Below, piece after piece: positions 22,394 through 53,030 of a DNA stretch of 64,000 nucleotides. Below the pieces are notes generated by a model. That model was not told the origin of the DNA and searched no databases. It worked only from the letters and a program-made list of their open reading frames with translations. Numbering within the stretch: the stretch's first letter is position 1; each line of letters begins with the position of its first letter. Made by a program: the position numbers and the translations under genes. Source of the stretch: Acidimicrobiales bacterium (GTDB taxonomy: Bacteria; Actinomycetota; Acidimicrobiia; Acidimicrobiales; Bin134). Location of the stretch: contig OZ220474.1 in the NCBI GenBank assembly GCA_965115985.1, positions 988,909-1,052,908 of the forward strand. Reading direction: 5' to 3'.

Positions 22394-25300
22394 CTATTCG
22401 GTGTTGTAGGTGTGGGCGTAGCGGATGGTGAACGCGACGGTCTCGCCGAAGGGTTCGGGGATGGTGATGGTGACCGTGGCGGTGGCGTCGGTTCCCTCGG
22501 TGACCGTCACCGCGTCGGGTACCGACACGACGCTGTCGGTGACCGCGGTTATCGTCACTGTTCGGGCGGTGGTGTTGCCGGCGGCGTCGGTGGCGGTGAC
22601 CGTCATGGTGTAGGTGCCCGCTTCGGTGGGGGTGAACGCCAGCCGGGCGGTGTCCAGCGTGGTGTCGTCGGGCAGGGCGGGTTCGGTCTCGTCGTCGGCG
22701 CGAGCCCACGCGTAGGTGACGGTGGTGCCTTCGGGGTCGAAGGCGGAGGCGGTGACGTCTGCTCGTTGGCCGACCTCTATGGTCACGTCGTTGATCGGGA
22801 ACAGAACCGGCGCCGCGTCCTCCTCCTCGTGACCCTCATCGCCGCCGTCACCGCTGGTGTCGTCATCGTCGCCGCCGTCGTTGCCGGTGTCGCCGTCGTT
22901 GTTGGTGTCGCCACCGTCGTTGCCGGTGTCGTCGTCGCCGTCGTTTTGGGTTGTTGCGCCGGTTCCTGTTGTGGGGGTGTCGTTTGAGGCGACGGTGATG
23001 ACGATGGTGCGGCTGTCGGTGTTTTCGTTGCCGTCCGAGGCGGTGACGGTCATGGTGTAGGTGCCCGTCTCGGTGGGGGTGAACCGCAACCGGGCCCGGT
23101 TCAACACCGTGGCCCGGGGCAGGGCGGGTTCGGTCTCGTCGTCGGCGCGAACCCACGTGTAGGTGATGGTGTCCTCGTCGTCGCCGTCGGTGGCCACCGC
23201 GGTGACGTCCACTTCCTGGCCGGGTCTTATGGTGACGTCGCCGATCGGTTCCAGCTCCGGGGGGTGGTCGTCGTCGAGGACGGTGACCGTGGCCGTCGCG
23301 TTGCCCAAAACGAAACCATCCGGCAGCGTCGATACCGGCTCTATCACCACGGTGATGGTCTCCACGTCCTCGTAGAGGTCGTCGTCGGGAATCGGAACCG
23401 ATATGTCCACCGAGGTGTCGTCGGCACCGAACCGCAGGGTGGAGACCACCGCCACCACCACCGTGGCAGTACCGGTGTTGCCGTGATCGTCCGACGCGGT
23501 CACCACCATCGTGTAGGTACCCACCTCGGTGGGGGTGAACCGCAACCGAGGCCCATCCAGCACCGTGTCCTCGGGCAACGGGGGCGTGACCTCGCCGTCG
23601 CGGCGAGCCCACGCATAGGTAACCGGGTCGCCGTCCGCGTCGGCGGCCGACGCGGTGACGTCCACTTCCTGGGCGGCTTTGACCCTGACGTCGGGCAGTG
23701 GTTTCAGCACCGGCGAGTGGTCGTCGTCGACGATGGTCACCGTTGACGACGCGTTGCCCATCGTGAACCCATCGGGCAACTCCCCCACCGGCGAGACCCG
23801 AACCACGAACGACTCGGACCCCTCATCGACGTCGTCGTCGAAAACCGGGATCGCTACCGCCCTGGAAGCGACACCAGGATCGAAAACCACCTCGACCACC
23901 TCGTCATCGTCGTAATCACCCCCACCAGGATCGCCGGAACCGGTTGCGGTGCCGGCGGTGGCGGGATCGGCGGTGCCGCCGGCGGTGTTGTCGGTGTAGG
24001 CGACGTTGAACCTGACTTCCTCGTTGAAGGGATCGCCCACTTCGATGGTGACCACCGCCGCGGTGTCGGCGCCCTCGGTGACCGCCACCGCCGCCGGTAC
24101 CGTCACCGGCGTGTCGGCTACGACGGTGATGATCACCGTCGCTCGGCTGCTGGTTTCGCCGCCGGGGTTCGTGGCGGTGACCACCATCGTGTAGACGCCC
24201 ACGGTGGTGGGGGTGAACCGTAGCCGGGCCCGGTTCAACACCGTGCCCGCGGGCAACGGCGGCGCGGTCTCGCCCTGTTCGCGAACCCACGCCCAGGAAA
24301 GCGTCCCACCATCGCCGTCGGCGGGGGATTCGACGACGTTGACCTCCTGGCCGACCTTGACCGTCACCAAAACCGTTCTGTCGTCGTTCCCAATGGTCAC
24401 CGTCGTGGTGGCGTTGCCCAGCACCCACCCCGCCGGCAGGGGTGCCGTCGGTGCGATCGTCACCGTGAACGTCTCCGCACCCTCCATCTCGTCGTCGTCG
24501 GTGACCGGCACGACGATCGTTCTCGACGTGTCCGCGGCTGCGAACACCACCGAGGCGACCGCGTCGTTGTCGTAATCGCCGTTCGTGGAATCGGCCGCCC
24601 CGCCGGCGGTGCCGTCGGTGTAGGAAACGGTGAACGTCACCGCCGCTCCGAACGCCTCTGCGGTGGTGATGGTCACCGTCGCGGTCTCATCGGTTCCCTC
24701 GGTGACCGCCACCGCGGCGGGCACCGACACCACCGTCGCCGGGTTCACCGTGACCACCACCGTGGCAGTATCGGTGTTGCCGTTCCCGTCCGACGCGGTA
24801 ACGACCATCGTGTAGGTACCGGTGGTGGCAGCAACGAAACTCAACCCGGCGCTGTTCAACGTGGTGCCCGCGGGCAGCGCCGGGACGGTCTCGCCAACCT
24901 TGCGAGCCCACTGATAGGAAACGGTGTCGCCGTCCGCGTCGGTGGCCGACGCGGTGACGTCCACCGTTTGACCGACCTTGACCACGACATCGCCCAGGTC
25001 GGCGAGCACCGGCGACTCGTCGTCATCGCCGATGGTCACCGCCGACGACGCGTTGCCCAACACCCACCCCGCCGGCAACCCCGTGGACGCGACCACCACC
25101 GTGAACGACTCCGACGGTTCGTCGAGATCGTCGTCGGTAATGGGAATGGTGATTGTTTTCGACGTGTCGGCGGCCCCGAACGCCACCGTGGTGACCGCAT
25201 CGTTGTCGTAATCGGCATTGGTCGGGTTACCGGCTCCTGTGGCGGTGCCGGCGGTGTAGGACACGGTGAACGTCACCGCCTCGCCGAACGCCTCGCCGGT

Positions 25301-28300
25301 GGTGATCGTCACCGTCGCATCGGATCCCTCGGCGACCGTGGTGGCGGCCGGTATCGACACCACCGTCGCCGGGTTGACGGTGACCACCACCGTCTCGGTA
25401 TCGGTATTTTCGTTACCGTCCGACGCGGTGACGATCATCGTGTAGGTACCGGCGGTGGTGGGAGTGAAACCCAACCCCGCCGAACCCAACGCAGTGCCGG
25501 CGGGCAGCGCCGGGACGGTCTCGCCGACCTTGCGAGCCCACGCGTAGGAAACCGTGTCGCCATCGGCGTCGGTGGCCGACGCGGTGACGCTCACCGCCTG
25601 ACCCACCTTGACCGACACGGCATCCAAATCGGCGAGCACCGGCGACGCGTCGTCATCGGTTATCGTCACCGTCGTCGACGCGTTGCCCAACGTGAACCCC
25701 GCCGGCAACACCCTCGACGAAGCAACCGTCACCGTGAACGACTCCGCCGCCTCGTCGAGATCGTCGTCGCTTATCGGCACGGTGAACGACTTCGACGTGT
25801 CCGCAGCCGAAAACGCCACCGTCGTCACCGCATCATTGTCGAAATCACCATCGGCGGGATCACCGGCCCCGGTAGCGGAGACATCGGTGTAGGACACGTC
25901 GAACGACACCGCCTCGCCGAACGCCTCCGCAGCGGTGATGGTGACCGTCGCCGCGGTGTCGGTGCCCTCGGTCACCGCCACCGCCGTCGGCACCGACACC
26001 ACCGTCTTGGCCGCCACGGTTATAACCACCGTCGCGGTGTCGCTGTTGCCGTTACCATCCGACGCGGTAACCGTCATCGTGTAAGTACCCGCCTCAGCAG
26101 GAGTGAACTGCAACCGGGCCGCACCCAACGCAGTCCCGTCGGGCAGCGCCGGAGCGGACTCCGAAGCCTTGCGAACCCAGGTGTAGGTGATCGTGTCGCC
26201 ATCCGCGTCGGTGGCGGTCGCATCAATCGTCACCTCCTGGCCGGCCTTCACCGACACCGCGCTCAACGACGGCAACACCGGCGACGAATCATCATCGGTA
26301 ATAGTCACCGTCGCCGACGAATTGCCCAACACGAACCCCGCCGGCAACGCCGCCGATGAGATCGCCACCGTGAACGACTCGGCCGCCTCGTCGAGATCGT
26401 CGTCGGCGACCGGCACCACGAACGACTTCGACGTCACCGACGCCGGGAACACCACCGTGGTCACCGCATCATTGTCGAAATCACCATCGGAAGGATCACT
26501 AGCACCCGTCGCGGTGCCGTCGGTGTAGGAAACGGTGAACGACACCGCCTCGCCGAACGCCGCCGCGGTGGTGATCGTCACCGACCCATCGCTGCCCTCG
26601 GTCACCGCCACCGCCGCCGGCACCGCCACCACCGAAGCCGCCGCAACGGTTATCACCACCGTCGCGGTATCGGAATTGCCGTTACCGTCCGACGCGGTAA
26701 CCGTCATCGTGTAAGTACCCGCCGAGGTGGGAGTGAAACCCAACTCCGCGACACCCAAATCAGTACTCTCGGGCAACGCCGGCGAAGTCTCGCCGCTCTT
26801 GCGAACCCACGCATAAGTCACGGTGTCGCCATCGGCGTCGGTGGCCGACGCGGTGACGCTCACCGCCTGACCCGCCTTGACCGACACGTCCTCCAAATCG
26901 GCGAGCACCGGCGAGGAATCGTCGTCGGTTATCGTCACCATCGACGACGCGTTGCCCAACACGAACCCCGACGGCAAAGTCGCCGAAACCGTCACCGTGA
27001 ACTTCTCGGCCTCCTCGTCGAGGTCGTCGTCGGTGATCGGCACCGTGAACAACTTGGTGGTGCCCGTGGCCGGGAACGACACCGTGGTCACCGCGTCGTT
27101 GTCGAAATCCCCCTCGGAGGGATCGGCCGCACCCGTAGCGGTACCGTCGGTGTAGGAAACGGTGAACGACACCGCCTCGCCGAACGCCTCGCCGGTGGTG
27201 ATCGTCACCGACGCATCGCCGCCCTCGGTGACCGCCACTGCCGCCGGTATCGACACCGGAGTAGCGGTGGTCACCGTTATCACCACCGTGGCGGCATCGG
27301 AATTGCCGTTACCATCCGACGCGGTGACCGTCATTGTATAAGTACCCGCCGCCACAGCAGTGAAACTCAACGTCGCCACATCCAAATCAGTACCATCGGG
27401 CAACGCCGGAGACGACTCGCCGCTGTCACGAACCCACGCGTAGGCGACCGTGTCACCGTCCGCGTCCGTAGCAGTCGCGTCCACGCTCACCGACTCGCCG
27501 ACCTTGGCCGACACCGCGCTCAAAGACGGCAACACCGGCGACTCGTCGTCGTCGGTAATCGTCACCGTCGCCGACGTGTTGCCCAACACGAACCCATCGG
27601 GCAACTCCGAATCCTCATCCACCGCAACCGACACCGTGAACGACTCCGCCAACTCGTCCAGATCGTCATCGGTGACCGGCACCGTGAACGACTTCGACGT
27701 GTCGGCAGCGCCGAACACCACCTCCGTCACCTCGTCGTTGTCGAAATCCCCCTCGGACGGATTAGCCGCACCAGTAGCGGTGCCGTCGGTATAGGACACG
27801 GTGAACGACACCGCCTCGCCGAACGCCGCCGCGGTGGTGATCGTCACCGTGGCATCGCTGCCCTCGGTGACCGCCACCGCCGTCGGTACCGATACCACCG
27901 TCGCCGCCGCAACCGTTATCACCACCGTGGCGGTGTCGGTGTTGTCGTTGCCATCCGACGCGGTAACCGTCATCGTATACGTACCCGCCTCGGTGGGAGT
28001 GAACCGCAACCGGGCCCGGTTCAAACTCGTACCGTCGGGCAACGCCGGAACCGACTCGCTGCTGTCACGAGCCCACGAATACGACACCGTGTCGCCGTCG
28101 GCGTCGGTGGCTCGTGCCCTGACGTCCACCGCCTCGCCCACCTTGGCCGACACGTCCTCGAGGTCGGCGAGCACCGGCGAGGAGTCGTCGTCGGTGATGG
28201 TCACCGTCGCCGACGAATTACCCAACGTGAACCCCGACGGCAACGACCCCACCGGCGCGATCCTCACCGTGAACGACTCCGCCAACTCGTCCAAATCATC

Positions 28301-30487
28301 ATCGGTGATCGGCACCGAAAACGTCCTCGACGTGTGACCGGCGCCGAACGTCACCCTCGTGGCCGCGTCGTTGTCGAAATCACCATCAGCAGGAACAGCC
28401 GCCCCCGAAGCGGTGCCGTCCACGTAGGAAACGTTGAACCGGACCCGCCGACCGAACGCCTCCGCCACGCTGATCGTCACCGACGCGTTCGACCCCTCGG
28501 TGACCGCCACCGCCGTCGGTATCGCCACCGGAATCTTCCCCGCGACCGTGATCACCACCGTGGCAACATCGGAGTTGCCGTTACCATCGGAGGCGGTGAC
28601 AATCATCGTGTAAACACCCGCCTCGGAGGGAGTGAACCGCAACCGAGCATCACCCAACTCGACACCCTCGGGCAACGCCGGAGCCGACTCGCCCACCTTG
28701 CGAGCCCACGAATACGACACCGTGTCACCATCGGCATCGGCGGCCGACGCGATGACATTCACCTCCTGGCCCACCTTCGCCGACACCGCCCCCAACGCCG
28801 CCAACACCGGCGACGAATCGTCATCGTTGATCGTCACCGTCGCCGACGAAATATCCATCCCCCACCCAGAAGGCAACGACGTCTTCGGCGCCAACGTCAC
28901 CGTGAACGTCTCCGCCTCCTCGTCGAGATCGTCATCGGTGATCGGCACCGTGACAGTAGCGACCGTCCACGCGCCGGCCGGGAGCGTAACCTCCGTCACC
29001 GCGTCGTTGTCGAAATCACCATCCGACGGAACAGCCGCACCCGAAGCAGTACCATCCGTATAAGAAACAGTCAAAACCACCGGCGAAGGTACGGCGGCCG
29101 CAAACTCGCGCGCACCAATAAGCATGCTCACATTGTTGCCCTCGGTCACCGAATACTTGGCATACTGAATCGTCACCCGGAACGGCGCGGCAACAGTAAT
29201 CACCACCGTGGCGGTGTCGGAATTACCATTACCATCCGACGCGGTAACCGTCATCGTATACGTACCCACAGCACCAGCAGTGAAACTCAACGTCGCGACA
29301 TCCAAATCGGTATCATCGGGCAACGCCGGCGACGTCTCGCTGCCATCACGAGTCCACACGTAAGAAACCGTGTCGCCGTCCGCGTCGGTGGCGGTCGCGT
29401 CGACGCTCACCGACTGGCCCACCTTCACCGACACCGCGCTCAACGACGGCAACACCGGCGACGAATCGTCATCGGTAATAGTCACCGTCGTCGACGCATT
29501 GCCCAACGCGAACCCCGACGGCAACTCCGAATCGTCCGCCACCGCAACCGACACCGTGAACGTCTCGTCCTCCTCGTCCAAATCATCACCAGTAGTCGGA
29601 ATCGAAATCGTCTTCGACGTATCACCCGAACCGAACACCACCTCCGTCACCGCATCATCATCGAAATCACCATCCAAAGGATCAGCCGCACCCAAAGCAG
29701 AACCATCGGAAACAGACACATCAAAAGTAACCGAACTACCAAAAGCCGAACCCACACTAATAGTAACCTCCGCATCAGAACCCTCGACCACCGACACCGA
29801 AACAGGCACCGACACCGGAGTAGCAGTAGCAGTAGCAGTAGCAGTAGCAGTAGCAGTAGCCGGTGGTGCAACCGTTATGATAGCTCCACCAGCTTCTAAA
29901 AGTGCAAGTGGTGAGAGGGTTTTTAATGATCCTACTGCAATAACCATTCCTTCACTTGGCACTTGTAGACCAGCTCTAGTATAGTTTTCTCTGATCCAGC
30001 TACCATCAGGCTTAACAGCGACATTTGCAAGAGACTCCAGTAAATGTTTAGTGCAGGAAGCGACAGTTACCTTAAGTAGGTCTCCATCTGGGGGATAATC
30101 ACATTTGATTAGCGTTAATGAAGCTGGCCTGTTCGTTTGAGGGTTAATATAAGTCCAACCCGTACCGATTAGAGTGAACGAATATTTACCTGCTTTCGGG
30201 ACGGTTGACTTGCAAGTACTCTTATCATTCTTATATGCTTCATCTTGCACACAAGCAGTAACATCCTGCAAAGTTTCAGGAAAAAAACTAGGAGTCGGGG
30301 ATGCAGTAGGAGTTGGAGTCGCCCCTTGCGCCGAGACGAACCGGTCGCTGCTCTCGACGGGCTCACCGGCCCACTCCACGACCCGGATGGGCTCACCCGA
30401 CCACACCATGACCACCAAAGCAATCATCAAAATCAACCGCCTCCTGCTCCCGAACAAACCCTGCGAACGCGAAGTGGTTGATTCCAT
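22394..30487 (-). CDS. Giant secreted/surface repeat protein (2697 aa) with alternating Calx-beta and cadherin-like (Ig-fold) modules
   Basis: N-terminal signal/TM (RRRLILMIALVVMVWSG). About 11 Calx-beta units (FTVSYTDGTATGAxDPxDGDFDNDAVT...VPITDDDLDExAExFTV) alternate with about 12 cadherin-like units (ATDADGDTVSYxWxR...PALP...FTPTxAGTYTMTVTASDGNGNSDTATVVITV). An acidic D/G/N/T linker sits near the C-terminus. Confidence 0.85.
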   Translation of the reverse strand: MESTTSRSQGLFGSRRRLILMIALVVMVWSGEPIRVVEWAGEPVESSDRFVSAQGATPTPTASPTPSFFPETLQDVTACVQDEAYKNDKSTCKSTVPKAGKYSFTLIGTGWTYINPQTNRPASLTLIKCDYPPDGDLLKVTVASCTKHLLESLANVAVKPDGSWIRENYTRAGLQVPSEGMVIAVGSLKTLSPLALLEAGGAIITVAPPATATATATATATATPVSVPVSVSVVEGSDAEVTISVGSAFGSSVTFDVSVSDGSALGAADPLDGDFDDDAVTEVVFGSGDTSKTISIPTTGDDLDEEDETFTVSVAVADDSELPSGFALGNASTTVTITDDDSSPVLPSLSAVSVKVGQSVSVDATATDADGDTVSYVWTRDGSETSPALPDDTDLDVATLSFTAGAVGTYTMTVTASDGNGNSDTATVVITVAAPFRVTIQYAKYSVTEGNNVSMLIGAREFAAAVPSPVVLTVSYTDGTASGAAVPSDGDFDNDAVTEVTLPAGAWTVATVTVPITDDDLDEEAETFTVTLAPKTSLPSGWGMDISSATVTINDDDSSPVLAALGAVSAKVGQEVNVIASAADADGDTVSYSWARKVGESAPALPEGVELGDARLRFTPSEAGVYTMIVTASDGNGNSDVATVVITVAGKIPVAIPTAVAVTEGSNASVTISVAEAFGRRVRFNVSYVDGTASGAAVPADGDFDNDAATRVTFGAGHTSRTFSVPITDDDLDELAESFTVRIAPVGSLPSGFTLGNSSATVTITDDDSSPVLADLEDVSAKVGEAVDVRARATDADGDTVSYSWARDSSESVPALPDGTSLNRARLRFTPTEAGTYTMTVTASDGNDNTDTATVVITVAAATVVSVPTAVAVTEGSDATVTITTAAAFGEAVSFTVSYTDGTATGAANPSEGDFDNDEVTEVVFGAADTSKSFTVPVTDDDLDELAESFTVSVAVDEDSELPDGFVLGNTSATVTITDDDESPVLPSLSAVSAKVGESVSVDATATDADGDTVAYAWVRDSGESSPALPDGTDLDVATLSFTAVAAGTYTMTVTASDGNGNSDAATVVITVTTATPVSIPAAVAVTEGGDASVTITTGEAFGEAVSFTVSYTDGTATGAADPSEGDFDNDAVTTVSFPATGTTKLFTVPITDDDLDEEAEKFTVTVSATLPSGFVLGNASSMVTITDDDSSPVLADLEDVSVKAGQAVSVTASATDADGDTVTYAWVRKSGETSPALPESTDLGVAELGFTPTSAGTYTMTVTASDGNGNSDTATVVITVAAASVVAVPAAVAVTEGSDGSVTITTAAAFGEAVSFTVSYTDGTATGASDPSDGDFDNDAVTTVVFPASVTSKSFVVPVADDDLDEAAESFTVAISSAALPAGFVLGNSSATVTITDDDSSPVLPSLSAVSVKAGQEVTIDATATDADGDTITYTWVRKASESAPALPDGTALGAARLQFTPAEAGTYTMTVTASDGNGNSDTATVVITVAAKTVVSVPTAVAVTEGTDTAATVTITAAEAFGEAVSFDVSYTDVSATGAGDPADGDFDNDAVTTVAFSAADTSKSFTVPISDDDLDEAAESFTVTVASSRVLPAGFTLGNASTTVTITDDDASPVLADLDAVSVKVGQAVSVTASATDADGDTVSYAWARKVGETVPALPAGTALGSAGLGFTPTTAGTYTMIVTASDGNENTDTETVVVTVNPATVVSIPAATTVAEGSDATVTITTGEAFGEAVTFTVSYTAGTATGAGNPTNADYDNDAVTTVAFGAADTSKTITIPITDDDLDEPSESFTVVVASTGLPAGWVLGNASSAVTIGDDDESPVLADLGDVVVKVGQTVDVTASATDADGDTVSYQWARKVGETVPALPAGTTLNSAGLSFVAATTGTYTMVVTASDGNGNTDTATVVVTVNPATVVSVPAAVAVTEGTDETATVTITTAEAFGAAVTFTVSYTDGTAGGAADSTNGDYDNDAVASVVFAAADTSRTIVVPVTDDDEMEGAETFTVTIAPTAPLPAGWVLGNATTTVTIGNDDRTVLVTVKVGQEVNVVESPADGDGGTLSWAWVREQGETAPPLPAGTVLNRARLRFTPTTVGVYTMVVTATNPGGETSSRATVIITVVADTPVTVPAAVAVTEGADTAAVVTIEVGDPFNEEVRFNVAYTDNTAGGTADPATAGTATGSGDPGGGDYDDDEVVEVVFDPGVASRAVAIPVFDDDVDEGSESFVVRVSPVGELPDGFTMGNASSTVTIVDDDHSPVLKPLPDVRVKAAQEVDVTASAADADGDPVTYAWARRDGEVTPPLPEDTVLDGPRLRFTPTEVGTYTMVVTASDDHGNTGTATVVVAVVSTLRFGADDTSVDISVPIPDDDLYEDVETITVVIEPVSTLPDGFVLGNATATVTVLDDDHPPELEPIGDVTIRPGQEVDVTAVATDGDDEDTITYTWVRADDETEPALPRATVLNRARLRFTPTETGTYTMTVTASDGNENTDSRTIVITVASNDTPTTGTGATTQNDGDDDTGNDGGDTNNDGDTGNDGGDDDDTSGDGGDEGHEEEDAAPVLFPINDVTIEVGQRADVTASAFDPEGTTVTYAWARADDETEPALPDDTTLDTARLAFTPTEAGTYTMTVTATDAAGNTTARTVTITAVTDSVVSVPDAVTVTEGTDATATVTITIPEPFGETVAFTIRYAHTYNTE
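29820..29861 (-). repeat. Hexanucleotide microsatellite (GTAGCA)6-GTAGCC encoding (AT)7
   Basis: Read directly. It translates as PPATATATATATATATPVS at the boundary between the AT-rich N-terminal domain and the repeat array. Confidence 0.95.
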
Positions 30488-42666: not shown

Positions 42667-43107
42667 CTACCCGAAGCCGACCGCCAGCACGACTCCCAGC
42701 GTCGCCAGGGAAAAGCCGATTATGGTGAAGACCAAGGTGCGGGACAACTGAGCCATCTGAAGCGTCAATCTCCTCTCCATCGCCTTCATCTCCTCAAGCA
42801 AAGCCTCAAACCCAGAATCAACCCTCTCAAACCGGCTATCCATCTTGTCGAACCTAGCATCCACATCCTGAAACCTGGCGTTCATCTCGATGCGCAGCCG
42901 TTCCTCGGAGGCACGCAGGTCTCCCTTGGTGGCCAAACTCTCCCAAGGCACAGGCGGCAATGAATCCATCAGCGTCTCAGACTCCTCTCTACCCAACACC
43001 TCACCCAGCTTACCCAACAACGCCAACCGCCTGCCCTCACCCACCGACTCACTCCCCGACATAGCGGGCCTCCCCAGATACGACCGTCGAAGGGAGGCAA
43101 ACATCAC
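42667..43107 (-). CDS. Small coiled-coil protein with C-terminal TM anchor (DUF1640-like), paralog A
   Basis: (V)MFASLRRSY...LPPVPWESLATKGDLRASEERLRIEMNARF...LSRTLVFTIIGFSLATLGVVLAVGFG. GGAGG lies 5 nt upstream of GTG 43107. It is a paralog of 52611-53030. Confidence 0.6.
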   Translation of the reverse strand: MMFASLRRSYLGRPAMSGSESVGEGRRLALLGKLGEVLGREESETLMDSLPPVPWESLATKGDLRASEERLRIEMNARFQDVDARFDKMDSRFERVDSGFEALLEEMKAMERRLTLQMAQLSRTLVFTIIGFSLATLGVVLAVGFG

Positions 43108-43191
43108 TGCCTCCGAGTGAATGCCCGGCACCTTAGCGGCCCAACCCCCCAAGAGCAACCACCCCAAGCCACCAGACCCCCCTGCCACCCA

Positions 43192-43202
43192 CCCCCCCCC
43201 CC
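43192..43202. repeat. C11 homopolymer in a C-rich spacer upstream of hsdM
   Basis: I counted this directly. It lies about 100 nt upstream of hsdM ATG (43305). Confidence 0.9.
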
Positions 43203-43304
43203 ACAGGAATGGCACAGCACCCCGCGGCAACCACCCCGCAGGACCGGACAATCAACCATTTCCCCATCCGAGCTGTCCCAGAAAGGGAATAGACTTGACC
43301 CCTC

Positions 43305-44891
43305 ATGAGAACCACGACCCCCGGCTTGTCGGCAACCCCACCATCCGACTACCGATCCGAGCTGTGGCGAATGGCCGATGTGCTCCGGGGAAGCATGGAT
43401 GCCGCCGAGTACAAGCACGTAGTGCTCGGGCTGATATTCCTCAAGTACGTGTCAGATGCCTTCGAGGAGGCCCAAGCACAACTAGTGGCCGAGGCCGAGC
43501 ACAACCGGGGGATCGACCCCGAGGATCCCGACGAGTACCGAGCCGAGAGCATCTTCTGGGTGCCGGTCGAGGCACGCTGGTCGCACCTGCAAGGCCAGGC
43601 CCGCCAGGCCGACATCGGTCGGCGGATAGACGACGCGATGGATGCCATCGAACGCGACAACCCCGCCCTCAAAGACGTGCTGCCCAAGAACTACGCCCGA
43701 CTGGCCCTCGACCAGAGCCGCCTCGGGCAGGTGGTCGAACTGGTGAGCAACATCCAGGTGGGAGGGGCCGAGGCCAGAGCCCACGACGTTCTGGGCGATG
43801 TCTACGAGTACTTCCTCGAGCAGTTCGCGATGGCCGAAGGCAAAAAGGGCGGGGAGTTCTACACCCCCCGTTCGGTGGTGCGGCTGCTGGTGGCCATGCT
43901 GGAGCCCTACCACGGTCGCGTCTACGACCCCTGTTGCGGCTCCTCGGGCATGTTCATCAAGTCGGTGGAGTTCATTCGTGCCCACGCCACCGGCAACGGC
44001 AACGGCGGGAAGGGCGGCCGGGACATTTCGATCTATGGCCAGGAGTCCAACCACACCACCTGGAGGATGGCCCGGATGAACCTGGCGATTCGAGGCATCG
44101 AGGGCCAGATCGAGCACGGGGATATCTTTCACAACGACCGTCATCCCGACCTGAAGGCCGACTACATCCTCACCAACCCGCCCTTCAACGTCTCCGACTG
44201 GGGCGGTGAGCAACTACGAGACGACCAGCGCTGGGTCTACGGCGTTCCCCCGGTCGGCAACGCCAACTTCGCCTGGGTACAGCACTTCCTGCACCATCTC
44301 GCCCCGGGCGGACAGGCGGGCTTCGTGCTCGCCAACGGTTCGATGTCTTCAGCCCAGTCGGGCGAAGGCGAGATCCGCAAGAACATCATCGAGGCCGACC
44401 TGGTGGATTGCATGGTGGCCCTGCCAGGGCAGTTGTTCCGTTCGACCCAGATACCCGCGTGCCTGTGGTTCCTGTCGAAGGCCCGCCGCACCGGAGAACA
44501 CCGGGACCGCGGGGGCGAGACATTGTTCATCGATGCCCGGGCCCTGGGCCGCATGACCGACCGCACGCACCGCGAGCTCACCGACGACGACATCGCCCAC
44601 ATCGCCGACACCTACCACGCCTGGCAAGGCAAGGAAAGCAGCCGTGAGTATGCCGATGTGCCCGGTTTCTGCAAATCGGCCGACCTCGAAGAGATAAAAC
44701 GACACGGACACGTGCTCACCCCCGGGCGCTACGTCGGCGCAGCACCCCAGGAGGAGGACGACGAGTCGTTCGAGCAGAAGATGTTACGCCTCGCCGACCA
44801 ATGGCGCGAGCAAAGGGCCGAGGCCCGACGGCTGGACGCGCTGATAGATGCCAACCTGGAAGCACTGGGTTACGGTGAGAACTCCGACTAG
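43305..44891 (+). CDS. hsdM: Type I restriction-modification system, methyltransferase subunit
   Basis: [37 protein letters not shown] (HsdM N-domain), motif [12 protein letters not shown] and motif [13 protein letters not shown]. Confidence 0.95.
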
Positions 44892-44915: not shown

Positions 44916-45338
44916 ATGCCGCTGGAGCTGACGAGCCTCCACCGCTCCATCCAGTCGCTGGCCGACCTGCTGGCCGTCGCCGAGAACGACGCGCGCTTGG
45001 ATCAGTTCACCGATGTAGAGCGCAAGGGTATCCGCGCCGGTGTTATCCAAAACTTCGAGGTCACCTACGAGCTCTCCTGGAAGCTGATGGCTCGCTGGCT
45101 CAACACCAACGTGAGCAGCGGCATCGCCGACGGCACCACCCGACGACAGTTGTTCCGCCTTGCAGCCCAACACCACCTAATCCATGATGTGGACGAGTGG
45201 ATGCAGCACCACGACGCTCGCAATATCACCTCCCATACCTACGACGAGACGAAGGCTGAACTGGCGCATCAGGCCGCTAGAAAGTTCGCAACCGATGCCC
45301 AGCACCTGCTCGAAGCACTGGAAGCGCGCAATGATTGA
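44916..45338 (+). CDS. HEPN-domain protein, HI0074 family (nucleotidyltransferase substrate-binding protein; putative RNase toxin of a HEPN/MNT pair)
   Basis: GVIQNFEVTYELSWKLMARWL and the Rx4H HEPN motif in HHDARNITSHTYDE. 140 aa. Confidence 0.85.
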   Translation: MPLELTSLHRSIQSLADLLAVAENDARLDQFTDVERKGIRAGVIQNFEVTYELSWKLMARWLNTNVSSGIADGTTRRQLFRLAAQHHLIHDVDEWMQHHDARNITSHTYDETKAELAHQAARKFATDAQHLLEALEARND

Positions 45339-46869
45339 CCTCAATCCCGTTCACCTCGCCATAGTCACCGACATCCTCGCCGAGCACGTACCCACCTACG
45401 AAGTAAGAGCTTTCGGCTCCCGCGCCACCTGGACAGCCAAGGACCACTCCGACCTAGACCTGGTGATAATCGGCGATGAACCGCTACCCACAAATACCCT
45501 GAGCTGCCTACGAGAAGCACTGGAGGAGTCACCATTACCGATACGAGTAGACGTCCTCGACTGGCACACAGTCCCCGAAAGCTGGCAGGAAGGAATTGAC
45601 GAAGATTGTGAAGTAGTTCAAGAAGTAATAGCTCATAATAAGTGGCAAAAAACGACGTTCGGTGAGTGCGCATATCTAGTTCGTGATACAGTATCACCCT
45701 CAGATTTCGATAACACCCCATACATAGGTCTAGAGCATATAGGTGAAGGCACTTTATCGTTGATAGGATCTGGAATAGCAAATGATGTCAGCAGTGCAAA
45801 GTTATTATTTCAGTGTAATGATATATTATTTGGTAAACTACGGCCTTATTTTCGCAAGCTAGCTAGACCACAATTTGGTGGGATATGCTCGACCGATATT
45901 TGGGTCGTGCGGCCAACAGATCAGGTTGACATTGGTTTTTTATTCTACCTCATGGCATCATCAAATTTTGTTGACACTGCAACACGAGGATCAGAAGGCA
46001 CCAGAATGCCTCGTGCAAAGTGGGACTTTGTCTCCCAACTTCCTATTTGGCTCCCACCCCTCGACGAGCAACGCCGGATCGCCCATATTCTTAGCACACT
46101 CGACGACCGCATTGAGTTGAACCGTCGCATGAGCAAGACCCTGGAAGAGATGGCACAAGCCCTCTTCCGTTCATGGTTCGTAAACTTCGACCCCGTACAC
46201 GCCAAAGTCGAAGGCCGACCCTCCGGACTCCCACCCGACCTCGACACCCTATTCCCCTCCTCCTTCCAAGAATCCCAACTAGGCCCAATCCCAAAAGGAT
46301 GGAAGGTGAAGAGCCTCGACGAAATCGCAGTGTTTACTAACGGTCTCGCGTTGCAGCGCTTCCCACCACATGATGACGACTGGTTACCAGTAATCAAGAT
46401 AGCGGAAATGAAACGTGGATATTCACAGAATACTAGTAAGGCTTCAGCGAGTATTGACCCAAAGTATATCGTTGAAGATAGCGACCTTTTGTTTTCTTGG
46501 TCGGGCAGTCTTGAAATTGTCCTGTGGGCAAACGGCCAAGGTGCGCTTAATCAACACCTGTTCAAGGTAACATCTTGTGAATTCCCTCTCTGGTTTTATC
46601 GCGGCTGGATAGCCAATTACTTAGAACACTTTCGCCAAATTGCTGCTAGTAAGGCTACAACTATGGGTCATATTCAGCGGCACCATCTGACAGATACAAA
46701 AGTAGTGATACCTCCACAAGATACTGTTTTCAAGAGTAATCGTTATCTTGCAACACTTACTGAACAGGAGGTGCGTACTGCGGTCCAAGCTCGCACACTT
46801 GCTGCTCAGCGTGATAAACTGCTGCCACCACTAGTTTCTGGCAAGTTAAGAACATGGAGGGCTAAGTAA
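45331..46869 (+). CDS. hsdS: In-frame fusion of an MNT-type minimal nucleotidyltransferase (HI0073-like antitoxin domain) with the Type I specificity subunit HsdS
   Basis: ATG 45331 overlaps the HEPN stop (ATGATTGA). The MNT motif is AFGSRATWTAKDHSDLDLVIIG. There is no stop and no ATG/GTG/TTG before the HsdS N-terminus (KWQKTTFGECAYLVRD). Two TRDs are separated by the conserved helix LPPLDEQRRIAHILSTLDDRIELNRRMSKTLEEMAQALFRSWFVNF. The C-terminal helix is ARTLAAQRDKLLPPLVSGKL. Confidence 0.85.
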   Translation: MIDLNPVHLAIVTDILAEHVPTYEVRAFGSRATWTAKDHSDLDLVIIGDEPLPTNTLSCLREALEESPLPIRVDVLDWHTVPESWQEGIDEDCEVVQEVIAHNKWQKTTFGECAYLVRDTVSPSDFDNTPYIGLEHIGEGTLSLIGSGIANDVSSAKLLFQCNDILFGKLRPYFRKLARPQFGGICSTDIWVVRPTDQVDIGFLFYLMASSNFVDTATRGSEGTRMPRAKWDFVSQLPIWLPPLDEQRRIAHILSTLDDRIELNRRMSKTLEEMAQALFRSWFVNFDPVHAKVEGRPSGLPPDLDTLFPSSFQESQLGPIPKGWKVKSLDEIAVFTNGLALQRFPPHDDDWLPVIKIAEMKRGYSQNTSKASASIDPKYIVEDSDLLFSWSGSLEIVLWANGQGALNQHLFKVTSCEFPLWFYRGWIANYLEHFRQIAASKATTMGHIQRHHLTDTKVVIPPQDTVFKSNRYLATLTEQEVRTAVQARTLAAQRDKLLPPLVSGKLRTWRAK

Positions 46870-47540
46870 TGTCGACTTCTGAAAACTCTAACGGTACTGA
46901 TAACTTATGGGAGGATGGAGTCCGTGCCTTCTTGAGTTACAAGGCTGAGTATCGGTCTCATGCTACTGAAATCAAGAAGTATCTGGGATCTTATGGAATC
47001 ACTACCTTTCTAGCTGGTGATGACATTCCTCCTCTAAGTGAATGGCAGAATGAGATAATGATGGCTCTAAAATCCATGGACTTTATGATTGCTCTACTAA
47101 CACCAGGATTCGAACAGAGTGTTTGGGTTAATCAAGAAATTGGGTATGCTCTTGGCCGGAACGTACCGGTGATCCCTGCCAGTCTTGGTTCAAAGCCATA
47201 CGGATTTATTGGCAAGTATCAAACCATAGATATTATCACAGAATTTTATGCCAACAGCAAGATATATTACGAAGGTGCAGTTAGACATATCTTCGAGGCT
47301 ATGCTTCGTATAGATGATGAAAATATTAATGAACTTGCGACCGATGCTTTTGTTAAAGCAGTATCTGCCTCTCCAGACTTTAGCACAACTGGAAAGTTGC
47401 TTAGTTTCCTTCCATTAATCAAGAACTTGACTGAAGAACAGACAGCTTTATTGATTGACTCCTATCGTAGCAATGATCAAGTACACAAATATTTGGGTTC
47501 CAAAGAGCTTCGCTATCGGCTAGGAATAGACCCGGTATAA
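46869..47540 (+). CDS. TIR-domain protein (N-terminal TIR_2/DUF1863-like domain plus a C-terminal region of about 95 aa with unknown function)
   Basis: AFLSYKAEYRSHATEIKKYLGSYGITTFLAGDDIPPLSEWQNEIMMALKSMDFMIALLTPGFEQSVWVNQEIGYALG matches the bacterial TIR pattern, including the conserved Glu. The start overlaps the hsdS stop (TAATG) and GGAGGG lies 7 nt upstream. GC is about 40% by eye. Confidence 0.7.
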   Translation: MSTSENSNGTDNLWEDGVRAFLSYKAEYRSHATEIKKYLGSYGITTFLAGDDIPPLSEWQNEIMMALKSMDFMIALLTPGFEQSVWVNQEIGYALGRNVPVIPASLGSKPYGFIGKYQTIDIITEFYANSKIYYEGAVRHIFEAMLRIDDENINELATDAFVKAVSASPDFSTTGKLLSFLPLIKNLTEEQTALLIDSYRSNDQVHKYLGSKELRYRLGIDPV

Positions 47541-47906
47541 CAGTATGTAAATAATAGAGATATATATAGAGATAGAATAATTCTCTGATATTTGTCCTTG
47601 ATAATCTTGCTTTTTATTCCTAAGTCATATCTCACTCTATAACTTGTATAATCAAATATTATATTGGGAGTACTATAAAAGAAACACCTCACTACTCATT
47701 TACAAACCTACTTTATAGACAACGTTATCTCACAATAGGGCTAGCTAGCTATGACATAAAACTGTTCTGTGCTGAGATAAGAATTGTCTATAGTACTGTA
47801 TATACTAGTGATCTATATATACCAGTGATATAGAAGGTGAGGGGGGACCCTGTTTTGAGTCCGTGTTTTGTGGGTCTTAGTCCTGGATTGTGGGAGGATG
47901 ATTGGG

Positions 47907-48185
47907 ATGAAACGTAAGCGTCATACGCCTGAGCAGGCGATTCGCAAGGTTCGTGAGGGCGAGCGGTTGTTGAACGGGGGGGCTTCGATCGGTGAGGTTG
48001 TGCGGGCGTTGGAGATCACTGAGTCCACGTGGAATCGGTGGCGGAACCAGTACGGGGGCCTGAAGGCTTCCGACGCCAAGGAGCTCAAGGCGCTTCGGGT
48101 GGAGAACACCCGGTTGAAGAAGTTGCTTGCCGAGGCGGAGTTGGACAAGGCGATGCTGAGGGATCTCGCCGAATCAAAATGGTGA
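47907..48185 (+). CDS. IS3-family transposase OrfA (HTH)
   Basis: MKRKRHTPEQAIRKVREGERLLNGGASIGEVVRALEITESTWNRWRNQY plus a leucine-zipper-like tail. GGGAGG lies 9 nt upstream of ATG 47907. Confidence 0.85.
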   Translation: MKRKRHTPEQAIRKVREGERLLNGGASIGEVVRALEITESTWNRWRNQYGGLKASDAKELKALRVENTRLKKLLAEAELDKAMLRDLAESKW

Positions 48186-49036
48186 CCCCGGATCGGCGTC
48201 GAGTCGCGGTTGAGCGGCTCCGGGCCGGGTTCGGGGTTTCCGAACGCAGGGCGTGCGAGGTGGTCGGCCAGCACCGGTCCACCCAGCGGCGACCCAAAAA
48301 GCCGGTATCGGACCGCGACCAGGAATTCCGCCGATGGCTTCGCTCCTTCGCCGCCGATCACCCGCGGTGGGGCTGGCGCAAGGCCCACGACGTCGCCGCG
48401 TCGAAGGATCTGGTGGTGAATCCCAAAAGGACCAGGGCCTTATGGCGCGACGAGGGCCTCCAGCGACCCCGGCAGAAAAAGAGCAAACAACGCCGTCGCG
48501 GCGACAACGCCGCGGCCCGGTTACGGGCCTGTCGTCCCAATCATGTTTGGGCACTGGATTTCCAGTTCGACGAGACTGCCCAGCACCGGAGATTGAAGCT
48601 GCTGAACGTCATCGACGAACACACCCGGGAGGCCTTGGCCATAGAAGTGGCCTACCGCATCGATGCCGACCGGGTCGTCGACGTGATCGCCGATCTGGTC
48701 GCTCAACGCGGCGCCCCCGAGCATCTGCGCATGGACAACGGTCCCGAACTCGTAGCCCAGGCGGTGCGGGACCGGTGCGAGACATGGGGCACCGACACCG
48801 CCTACATCGAACCCGGATCCCCATGGCAGAACCCCTTCATCGAGTCCTTCAACGGGCGACTCAGAGACGAATGCCTCAACATCGAGGACTTCGCCAACCT
48901 CACCGAAGCCAAAATAGTCATCCAGGACTGGAAAAACGAGTACAATAACTACCGGCCCCATCGGGCGCTCGACGGGAAACCACCCGCCGCCTACGCAGCC
49001 CAATGGGCCAAACAACACCAAACAAAACACCCATAA
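48179..49036 (+). CDS. IS3-family transposase OrfB (DDE/rve integrase core); may be made as an OrfAB fusion by -1 frameshifting near 48170-48182
   Basis: HVWALDFQFDET (D), LRMDNGPELV (D) and NPFIESFNGRLRDECLN (E). The frame is -1 relative to OrfA. ATG 48179 overlaps the OrfA stop. Confidence 0.85.
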   Translation: MVTPDRRRVAVERLRAGFGVSERRACEVVGQHRSTQRRPKKPVSDRDQEFRRWLRSFAADHPRWGWRKAHDVAASKDLVVNPKRTRALWRDEGLQRPRQKKSKQRRRGDNAAARLRACRPNHVWALDFQFDETAQHRRLKLLNVIDEHTREALAIEVAYRIDADRVVDVIADLVAQRGAPEHLRMDNGPELVAQAVRDRCETWGTDTAYIEPGSPWQNPFIESFNGRLRDECLNIEDFANLTEAKIVIQDWKNEYNNYRPHRALDGKPPAAYAAQWAKQHQTKHP

Positions 49037-49456
49037 CCCATGGACTCACAAACGGGTCCCCCTCAAAGGAATAGTGGCTATGATATCTATCGAAGTGTAT
49101 AGATCATTGCAGTAAAATATTCTGACGCTCTTCGAGCATATACCCGGACTATAAAATGGTGGTGTGGTTGATATGTTCGTGGTCTAGCAGAAGGAGCTTC
49201 TGCTGGTAACTGATTATGGCGACACACTTGGCTGGCTCCGCATGCAATTGGCTAGTGGCGATCTCTCGCCCAGATAGCACGAGGTAATCGATAATATGTG
49301 TCTGATAGCTGGTGTCGATTTGTGCCAGGAGCAGTTGCAGATTCGATGCGAGGACCCATTTGATCTCGCTAGGGCTGTGCAGCGAGTTGCAGAAGTATGT
49401 GAAAAGCTTGATATTATCATGGTTACTGCTGAGGTTGCCAAGCCCGCCATGGACGC

Positions 49457-52597
<3,141 letters not shown>

Positions 52598-52610: not shown

Positions 52611-53030
52611 CTAGGAGAAGCCGACGGCCACCACGGCTCCCACAACCGCCACCGCGAAGCCGGCGACCGCGAAAATGACCGTACGGAAGAGGTTGGCCAT
52701 CTGAAGCAATAGTTCCCCGCGCAGTTCCTTGAACCCGGCGTTCATCTCGATGCGAAGCCGTTCCTCGGAGTCCCGTATGTCCTCCTTGGTCGCCCGTATG
52801 TCCTCCCTGATGGCCCGTATGTCCTCCTTGGTCGCCCGTATATCGTCCTTGGTGGCCAGACGGTCCCAGGGCACGGGTGGAAGAGACTCGACCAATGTCC
52901 ACGCCTCCTCTTCTCCCAGGGTATCGACCAGGCGACTCAACAACGCAAGCCGCCTGCCTTCGCCAATGACATCACCCTCCGGCATCGCCGGCCTCCTCAG
53001 TGGTAGCTGTCGAAGGGAGGCAAAAATCAC
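52611..53030 (-). CDS. Small coiled-coil protein with C-terminal TM anchor (DUF1640-like), paralog B
   Basis: (V)IFASLRQLPL...LPPVPWDRLATKDDIRATKEDIRAIREDIRATKEDIRDSEERLRIEMNAGF...VIFAVAGFAVAVVGAVVAVGFS. The 5' UTR is nearly identical to paralog A. Confidence 0.6.
   Translation of the reverse strand: MIFASLRQLPLRRPAMPEGDVIGEGRRLALLSRLVDTLGEEEAWTLVESLPPVPWDRLATKDDIRATKEDIRAIREDIRATKEDIRDSEERLRIEMNAGFKELRGELLLQMANLFRTVIFAVAGFAVAVVGAVVAVGFS
52772..52855 (-). repeat. 21-bp in-frame tandem repeat x4 (heptad KEDIRAT units) in paralog B
   Basis: cccgtatgtcctcc(t/c)t(g)gtcg-type units lie at 52772, 52793, 52814 and 52835. Confidence 0.85.

Follow-up and report, generated by a model that had tools for sequence, protein, structure and literature searches.

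A TIR-domain gene coupled to hsdS in a Type I restriction-modification operon: a candidate one-protein abortive-infection module with a DARNA-like C-terminal domain

Introduction

Abortive-infection (Abi) effectors nested in restriction-modification (R-M) operons are documented, among them PrrC, RloC and several HEPN families (HEPN survey), and PrrC is described as almost exclusively embedded in R-M systems. In this work we analyzed a TIR-domain gene located at positions 46869–47540 (+) of a 64,000-nt stretch from an Acidimicrobiales bacterium (GenBank assembly GCA_965115985.1, contig OZ220474.1, positions 988,909 to 1,052,908), where it follows hsdS in a Type I R-M operon. Hereafter "the window" means this whole stretch, and positions count from its first letter. 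An earlier note on this DNA had assigned the gene to a prrC-like slot between hsdS and hsdR and had suggested that its product guards the Type I enzyme.

Several described systems are relevant for comparison. Using 'guilt-by-embedding', Payne et al. 2024 (10.1101/2024.01.29.577857) defined PDC candidates from genes nested in Type I R-M, BREX or DISARM systems; for PDC-S34 and PDC-S66 no mechanism was described in the literature that we searched. DARNA (= PD-T7-3) acts in abortive infection as a single protein, its N-terminal part being a HEPN tRNase and its C-terminal domain Pds5/HEAT-like. It forms a dodecamer, is switched on by single-stranded DNA (ssDNA) presented by the phage's ssDNA-binding protein (SSB), and contacts ssDNA through F368, D372, N402, Q403, Y405, W406 and N408 in the distal part of the C-terminal domain (bioRxiv 10.64898/2026.02.22.705581). 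The accession of DARNA/PD-T7-3 in Vassallo Table S2 is ECOR30 QOXP01000001 286951–288318, RCP48690.1. Standalone TIR proteins were explicitly left out of a recent systematic survey of TIR systems in bacteria, and in the literature that we searched neither a TIR gene located in the hsdS-hsdR slot nor a TIR-plus-DARNA-like-domain family was described.

We tentatively propose, at somewhat less than an even chance, that the gene encodes a self-contained one-protein abortive-infection module, in which a TIR NADase is joined to a DARNA-like sensor with a replication-linked nucleic-acid trigger, and which is embedded in the operon and co-translated with hsdS as a second layer of defence.

Results

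The TIR gene starts on the stop codon of hsdS

The list of open reading frames (ORFs) and direct reading of the sequence agree on a TIR gene of 223 codons at these positions. The hsdS/TIR junction reads GGAGGGCTAAGTAATGTCG, and bases 46850–46880 read GAACATGGAGGGCTAAGTAATGTCGACTTC. The hsdS frame terminates as AGG GCT AAG TAA with the stop codon at 46867–46869, and the ATG of the TIR gene lies at 46869–46871, so that the two genes share a single base, the A of TAATG. A Shine-Dalgarno-like GGAGG(G) at 46856–46861 (+), also read directly, is located inside the end of hsdS, 8 nt 5' of this ATG. The start and the good ribosome-binding site described in the earlier note are thus confirmed. A scan for promoters and terminators around the TIR gene gave matches no more numerous than in shuffled sequence. 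The encoded protein ends in ...LGIDPV and represents a short form, without the ~130-aa N-terminal extension that many members of the family have; short forms are common in the family, embedded ones included.

The N-terminal part is a TIR domain

The TIR domain occupies residues 18–123 (46920–47237, +). Pfam TIR_2 (PF13676) covers residues 21–123 with E=3.2e-15 and 57.1 bits, against a cut-off of 28. An AlphaFold2 model built with 18 homologs (pLDDT 84, pTM 0.82) contains a five-strand beta/alpha TIR-like core at residues 18–122, with listed strands at 18–24, 44–50, 72–77 and 101–105, followed by six helices at 131–217. When this model was compared with the PDB by Foldseek, the matches were flax L6, Brucella BtpA, TIR-STING, SARM1, MAL, SPARTA, ThsB and SpbK, with E values from 3e-4 to 1e-2. 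Both the model and the fold search therefore agree with the flavodoxin-like beta/alpha fold of TIR domains, and the assignment in the earlier note stands at the level of profile as well as structure.

The motif quoted in that note, with its conserved Glu, is also present. In the alignment of 81 relatives, E90 within SVWVNQEIGYA shows no variation, and W86, Q89, G92, A94, P110, G112 and Q118 are likewise invariant. E90, in S84-x-W86-x-x-Q89-E90, is the predicted catalytic Glu of the domain. We take S84-x-W86-x-x-x-E90-I to be the canonical TIR alpha-C motif bearing the catalytic Glu, presumably the counterpart of 'DWVHKE642I' of SARM1 and 'SxWCLxEL' of plant TIRs.

Named families come close to the TIR core only. 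The PADLOC ThsB match is partial (E=1.6e-7, 29 bits), and the best NCBIfam match, ThcB4 of type III Thoeris, scores 46 bits against a cut-off of 220.

The C-terminal domain matches the distal end of the PD-T7-3 profile in part of the family

In the last ~95 aa the earlier note had recognized no motif. This part of its description has to be revised, since the region proved to be a conserved domain that is common to all aligned members of the family and has matches to PD-T7-3 and PDC-S34. It comprises residues ~128–218 (47250–47522, +), is modelled by AlphaFold2 as six helices of ARM/HEAT-like arrangement (pLDDT 88 when modelled alone) and is the predicted sensor of the protein. Its conserved residues include a patch of N202, Q204 and aromatics. 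The domain corresponds to no family in Pfam or NCBIfam. Nevertheless, an exhaustive search with its profile against 1.84 billion cluster representatives revealed 1469 proteins at E<=1e-3, 335 of them at E<=1e-10. Ten of the listed matches were scanned for other domains: nine consist of TIR_2 plus the C-terminal domain, and one, a protein of 209 aa, gave no match to any family.

When family members were scanned one by one against PADLOC, the C-terminal domain matched PD-T7-3 in 18 of 81 (best E=2.6e-8) and PDC-S34 in 8 of 81 (best E=7.9e-6). The PD-T7-3 matches are always colinear and fall at profile positions ~330–423 of 432; those to PDC-S34 always keep one register, at ~286–359 of 384. Judging from these profile alignments, the TIR family seems to carry a distal piece of the DARNA sensor module on another effector.

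The N-termini of the scanned proteins with this domain vary. In P0167 (486 aa) an AbiJ_NTD3 domain stands ahead of the TIR and C-terminal domains, which connects the family with N-terminal modules of AbiJ type, described in the HEPN survey as fused to TIR and other effectors.

Other candidate relatives of the C-terminal domain were less productive. A word-index search with the C-terminal alignment returned family fragments only, and tblastn of the C-terminal consensus on phages gave nothing credible. A NERD protein was considered and rejected (tblastn on plasmids E~5; hhalign probability 1%). The idea that the N-terminal extension of the long forms is a repeat of the C-terminal domain was rejected as well (i-E-values 22–480).

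Part of the family ends in an SSB-like tail

An acidic-x-P-F-COOH terminus was found in 13 of the 80 genomic members whose loci were studied and in 18 of 115 longer representatives (~16%). Typical endings are ...DDDIPF, ...DDDDIPF, ...EDDIPF and ...SDDIPF, and examples of carriers are P0184, P0018, P0134, L083 287–1300, L011 3886–4668, L029 9986–10717 and L089 8740–9672. Among ~950 other ORFs of the same loci only ~1 has the same tail. DDDIPF is known as the conserved C-terminal tip of bacterial SSB (PMC5872125), and the D-D-[ILV]-P-F-COOH tails of the family are the same as this tip or nearly so. At the level of the family, the tail is therefore a second, independent pointer to ssDNA/SSB biology; it could be a mimic of the SSB tail or an autoinhibitory mimic of DNA.

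It should be mentioned that one of the carriers, L089, is a solo member of 310 aa (WP_301743447.1) from the Klebsiella pneumoniae IncF plasmid NZ_CP129796.1. It combines the N-terminal extension, the TIR domain, the C-terminal domain and an SDDIPF tail, adjoins plasmid replication genes and may be a handy homolog for experiments.

Relatives occur both inside and outside Type I R-M systems

The distribution of the family was studied in two ways. A word-index search found only 25 relatives, the closest with 50% identity. A pattern scan of 185,579 species, each represented by one genome, revealed 528 relatives; in 80 fetched loci the genomic setting was judged by phmmer with HsdM, HsdS and HsdR of the window as queries.

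Type I R-M genes are present inside the fetched flanks of 31 of the 80 loci, and of 14 of the 43 loci with at least 5 kb on each side. As these 80 are the loci nearest to an embedded query, the resulting 39% of embedded members may overstate the rate for the whole family. A random gene would have a Type I system within 10 kb in well under 1–2% of cases, a figure estimated from the general abundance of R-M systems and not from a computed control. The association of the TIR family with Type I R-M is real, and the enrichment of homologs beside such genes expected in the earlier note is borne out.

Almost without exception, the embedded loci show the genes on a single strand as hsdM-(x)-hsdS-TIR-(x)-hsdR. 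At least 16 loci have a TIR start that overlaps the hsdS stop (usually as ATGA) or is separated from it by 14 nt at most, which points to co-expression of the two genes, and in six loci (L028, L033, L039, L069, L070 and L074) the TIR stop overlaps the start of hsdR too. The same arrangement was found for a metagenomic homolog with 36% identity. The hosting systems are all of a single HsdM/HsdR family, whose mean identity is 61–63%.

The remaining 49 of the 80 nearest genomic relatives (~60%) are located outside Type I R-M systems. Plasmid copies from Klebsiella, Pseudarthrobacter and Ca. Megaira are solo, keep the C-terminal domain and are annotated just as 'TIR domain-containing protein'. When neighbouring genes within 6 kb were clustered, the sole recurrent families were HsdM/S, in 27 loci, and HsdR, in 23, all others being present in a few loci at most, and neither a ThsA-like gene nor another effector recurs beside the 80 relatives. 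The settings of the solo members are heterogeneous: among the 141 nearest neighbours of the non-Type-I loci, Pfam revealed some other R-M enzymes (four of Eco57I type, two of MmeI type, and Type ISP), four ThsB-type TIRs and integrases. We also considered whether the genes of ~400–470 aa upstream of solo members are divergent HsdS, and rejected this, as no Methylase_S was found among the Pfam families listed for these neighbours.

One member, P0020 (L002 6523–14391, a metagenome contig), stands in a series of four TIR genes, including one with a fused SLOG-like domain (LD_cluster2), beside an AAA_15/AAA_21 ATPase. This cluster agrees with the published description of type III Thoeris.

Comparison of embedded and solo members revealed that: (i) they are interleaved in a neighbour-joining tree, in which the window protein has a long branch; (ii) no alignment column splits the two groups, the maximum mutual information being 0.376 vs a permuted 95th percentile of 0.426; (iii) TIR identity is uncorrelated with the identity of HsdM or HsdR (Spearman 0.0 and 0.12); and (iv) in every embedded locus the GC content of the TIR gene is 5–25 points below that of hsdM/hsdR. 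Taken together with the solo relatives, these results point to a mobile, self-sufficient cassette repeatedly fixed after hsdS, and not to a protein co-evolving with the restriction complex.

The operon contains a second embedded toxin module and an IS3-family element

The operon begins with hsdM (43305–44891, +), encoding the Type I methyltransferase subunit of 528 aa (Pfam N6_Mtase E=2e-105 and HsdM_N; PADLOC MTase_I E=1e-202). It is followed by a HEPN-type gene of the HI0074/NTase_sub_bind family (44916–45338, +; 140 aa), identified by Pfam NTase_sub_bind (E=2e-33), a weak HepT-like match and NCBIfam TIGR01987 (75 bits vs 55.8). Its product is the predicted RNase toxin of an embedded pair of HEPN and minimal nucleotidyltransferase (MNT).

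The gene upstream of the TIR gene is in fact an MNT::HsdS fusion of 512 aa, read from the ATG at 45331 (45331–46869, +; Pfam, PADLOC Specificity_I). Residues 1 to ~99 form a minimal nucleotidyltransferase of antitoxin type (Pfam Polbeta/NTP_transf_2 at 13–91), and residues ~100–512 form a complete HsdS with two target-recognition domains (Pfam Methylase_S); the PADLOC Specificity_I match spans residues 103–508 vs profile positions 3–435 of 446. Both parts are in one frame with no intervening stop codon. Six related loci of different phyla likewise have a HEPN gene ahead of such a single-ORF fusion (L009 7787–9998, L029 7993–9978, L054 6862–8827, L060 3849–5916, L063 7943–10010 and L070 126–2157), in which linker lengths and recognition domains differ; L011 has MNT and HsdS as two genes. 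We did not find the fusion described in the HEPN survey. With its antitoxin tethered to HsdS in this way, the HEPN toxin could serve to guard the core of the R-M system, and such a tether looks more like 'guard' wiring than anything on the TIR gene does.

Downstream, the TIR gene is not adjacent to hsdR. Between them are located an AT-rich spacer of 297 bp with a GC content of 0.30 and no credible ORF (47541–47837), an IS3-family insertion sequence (IS) of 1228 bp (47838–49065, +) and a gene remnant of ~300 bp (49155–49460, +). The IS3 element contains orfA (47868–48185) and orfB (48029–49036), with Pfam HTH_Tnp_1, rve and rve_3, and has imperfect terminal inverted repeats and a 4-bp AAGG target duplication (47834–47837 and 49066–49069), its ends having been read directly. 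It probably uncouples hsdR from the upstream genes. The remnant matches by blastx (E=1e-10) an ORF directly upstream of hsdR in L011; its frame has no start codon before 49296, and its terminal ATGA overlaps the start of hsdR. It represents what is left of another embedded gene. The slot order given in the earlier note was right, but its 'hsdS' is an MNT::HsdS fusion preceded by a HEPN gene, and the note mentioned neither this HEPN/MNT::HsdS module nor the IS element that parts the TIR gene from hsdR.

The last gene of the operon, hsdR (49457–52597, +), encodes the Type I restriction/translocase subunit of 1046 aa (Pfam HSDR_N, SWI2_SNF2, T1R_D3-like and T1RH-like_C; PADLOC REase_I 1099 bits). 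According to Pfam and PADLOC, hsdM, hsdS and hsdR are all full length.

The GC content changes sharply along the operon, from 0.64 in hsdM to 0.47 in hsdS, 0.41 in the TIR gene and 0.30 in the spacer, and back to 0.65 in hsdR, the value for the window being 0.64. The low-GC stretch (30–47%) of hsdS, TIR gene and spacer extends over 45400–47840 and 49066–49400. Such low values would fit an hsdS-TIR cassette that is exchanged while the hsdM/hsdR frame around it stays conserved.

The whole operon is bracketed by two paralogous genes on the opposite strand, at 42667–43251 (-) and 52611–53030 (-). Each encodes a coiled coil and a C-terminal hydrophobic helix, and neither has a match in Pfam or NCBIfam. 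Their DNA forms direct repeats with 71–84% identity, located ~9.9 kb apart, which may mark the insertion site or be a substrate for recombination of the operon as a whole.

Elsewhere the window contains housekeeping genes (arginine biosynthesis, CTP synthase, actinobacterial-type Kgd), and the locus is therefore chromosomal and its host probably actinobacterial. A PADLOC match resembling a Type IIG restriction-methyltransferase (E=3e-54) was revealed outside the operon, in one of the large ORFs, e.g., 17300–21160 or 22394–30487. A phage-type integrase is also present in the window, and the ORFs at 34–39 kb have low third-position GC; together, these hint at a genomic island. Among window ORFs of at least 100 aa no ThsA-like gene, SIR2, SLOG, Macro or other effector was found, in agreement with the earlier note.

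Discussion

A one-protein module behind restriction

The one-protein module proposed in the Introduction would act as follows. The N-terminal TIR domain would serve as the NAD+-consuming effector and the small C-terminal helical (ARM/HEAT-like) domain as the sensor of infection. The C-terminal domains would be engaged by a nucleic-acid cue arising from replication of the phage, ssDNA or SSB-coated ssDNA being the likeliest; the TIR domains would thereby be gathered into an active oligomer, NAD+ would be destroyed, and the infected cell would no longer support the phage. The gene itself may travel as part of a low-GC hsdS-linked cassette that has repeatedly become fixed in the hsdS-hsdR interval of a single Type I R-M family, where translational coupling would co-express it as a layer behind restriction, with no need for the restriction complex to hold it. 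The solo relatives, the lack of a recurrent partner and the absence of a ThsA-like gene among the window ORFs of at least 100 aa argue for such autonomy. From these features we infer that the protein is an NADase, that it oligomerises, what triggers it and that it belongs to a layered defence; the TIR gene is probably a back-up anti-phage layer.

Several results weigh against this proposal. The link to DARNA consists of weak-to-moderate profile matches, and the window protein itself matches PDC-S34 only (E=0.003–0.006) and has no SSB-like tail. A fold search with the C-terminal model gave no significant match, the best being designed armadillo repeats with E=0.12, and a sequence search of the PDB with the C-terminal profile revealed no significant chain. 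The nearest named TIR is of the signalling type (ThcB4 of type III Thoeris). At several near-invariant TIR positions the residue of the window copy is not that of the family consensus, namely Y24 (H in the family), G50 (H), V87 (T) and N88 (D), of which Y at position 24 is presumably usual in TIRs at large, e.g., in the 'FISY' motif of SARM1. Finally, the precise and repeated slot after hsdS in one Type I family is more specific than simple hitch-hiking requires.

Guarding of the restriction complex

This last point leads to the guard suggested in the earlier note, according to which the TIR protein would be latent on HsdM2-HsdS or on the full Type I complex and would fire as an NADase when an Ocr-, ArdA- or Stp-type protein disables or distorts the complex. 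The prrC-like slot (hsdM-hsdS-X-hsdR), held in 31 of 80 relatives, and the association with R-M stand. So does the tight spacing, since the TIR start overlaps the hsdS stop or lies no more than 14 nt away in at least 16 lineages of many phyla, with the TIR-hsdR overlap in six loci and a single HsdM/HsdR family as host. The antitoxin domain fused to HsdS in the second toxin module would fit a guarded hub, and PDC-S34, which matches the C-terminal domain in part of the family, was defined from genes embedded in R-M, BREX or DISARM. An obligate guard is nevertheless disfavoured. PrrC is almost exclusively embedded, whereas ~60% of the nearest TIR relatives, plasmid copies included, are solo; embedded members are scattered over the tree, no residue marks them, and the TIR gene does not co-diverge with HsdM/R. 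Moreover, the sensor-like domain seems to be shared with DARNA, which detects ssDNA by itself, and in the window the IS element already parts the TIR gene from hsdR. Guarding of the Type I enzyme by the TIR protein is thus possible but not favoured, and we regard it as unlikely.

An extended version of guarding takes HsdS as a hub for two suicide modules, one through the fused MNT antitoxin and the other through the coupled TIR NADase docked on the methyltransferase core. An anti-restriction protein or DNA mimic that seizes HsdM2-HsdS would then unleash both RNA cleavage and NAD+ depletion. We consider this speculative and give it little credence; if true, a restriction enzyme would have a 'guard' that is both TIR-based and toxin-antitoxin-based, and this would be conserved in several phyla.

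Signalling or passenger TIR

It also seems rather improbable that the protein is a Thoeris-like signalling TIR, which would sense infection and, without depleting NAD+ itself, make an ADP-ribose-derived second messenger for an effector elsewhere in the genome, as ThsB/ThcB-like proteins do. The nearest named families are indeed the ThsB models of PADLOC (E about 1e-7) and ThcB4 of NCBIfam (46 bits), P0020 is clustered with several TIR genes and one for a TIR-SLOG protein, as in type III Thoeris, and in four non-R-M loci a ThsB_TIR gene adjoins. However, these scores are far under the family cut-offs (46 vs 220 bits) and concern the TIR core only, and signalling TIRs are normally operon-linked to their effector, whereas no SIR2, SLOG, Macro or other effector was found among window ORFs of at least 100 aa and none recurs beside the relatives. 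The statement of the earlier note that the locus is not canonical Thoeris can therefore be retained.

Least probable, and with very little chance of being right, is that the TIR gene is a passenger, that is, a decaying or non-catalytic scaffold brought along with a horizontally acquired hsdS cassette and with no current defence role here: the very low GC of hsdS-TIR (0.41–0.47 vs 0.64), the IS3 insertion and gene remnant just downstream, the long branch with its departures from consensus at several near-invariant positions, and the short form without N-terminal extension or the SSB-like tail of ~16% of the family would fit it, but the gene has an intact ORF, coupling and a good ribosome-binding site, its product retains the catalytic-type Glu and the remaining invariant core, the structure model is confident, short forms are common and found embedded as well, and hsdM, hsdS and hsdR are full length.

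Significance

To our knowledge, the nested second-line killers known in restriction operons, such as PrrC, are RNases, and how such a guard works has been established in essentially a single case. In the family described here, the prrC-like slot is taken by a TIR effector, in dozens of species of many phyla. The family, with at least 528 genomic relatives and ~1,470 sequence clusters, has no specific name in Pfam, NCBIfam or PADLOC; it is real, widespread and unnamed, the principle of nested effectors itself not being new. Its DARNA-like domain, together with the SSB-tip-like tail in a sixth of the family, provides a concrete and testable trigger hypothesis for a standalone bacterial TIR. The occurrence of embedded and solo copies of one protein allows a clean comparison between a merely embedded Abi module with a built-in sensor and a true guard of restriction, and the solo copies include the one on the Klebsiella IncF plasmid, which is expected to be easy to test.

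Comparison with known systems

With SpbK of B. subtilis, SARM1-type proteins, TIR-STING and SPARTA TIR-APAZ the window protein shares the fold and the catalytic-type Glu, and, as in these systems, trigger-driven oligomerisation with no separate effector gene would be expected. They differ in their sensor domains and triggers, the TIR family's C-terminal domain having no Pfam or NCBIfam model. The TIR_2/ThsB-like core is common to Thoeris ThsB and type III ThcB4, but the scores are far below the cut-offs, and neither ThsA, SLOG nor another partner was found among window ORFs of at least 100 aa or recurring near relatives.

Among the PDC candidates, PDC-S34 has the C-terminal domain in common with the TIR family, and PDC-S66 has the N-terminal extension plus the TIR region, both at weak E-values; the matches are partial (14–31 bits), and neither model covers the family.

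PrrC/EcoprrI (E. coli prr, Type Ic) shows the same slot, hsdM-hsdS-X-hsdR, and shares the general logic that a restriction system carries a nested suicide effector. The proteins themselves are unrelated, PrrC being an ABC-ATPase plus a HEPN-like anticodon nuclease and the window protein a TIR plus a helical domain, and PrrC is nearly always embedded, whereas the TIR family is embedded in just ~39% of the nearest relatives. DARNA, in turn, differs in its effector, which is a HEPN domain (RxxxxH) and not a TIR, and only the distal part of its C-terminal domain of ~300 aa is represented in the TIR family. Nevertheless, both are single polypeptides that would combine an effector with a sensor, both have a helical-repeat fold, and the C-terminal ~90 aa of the TIR family match the far C-terminal end of PD-T7-3.

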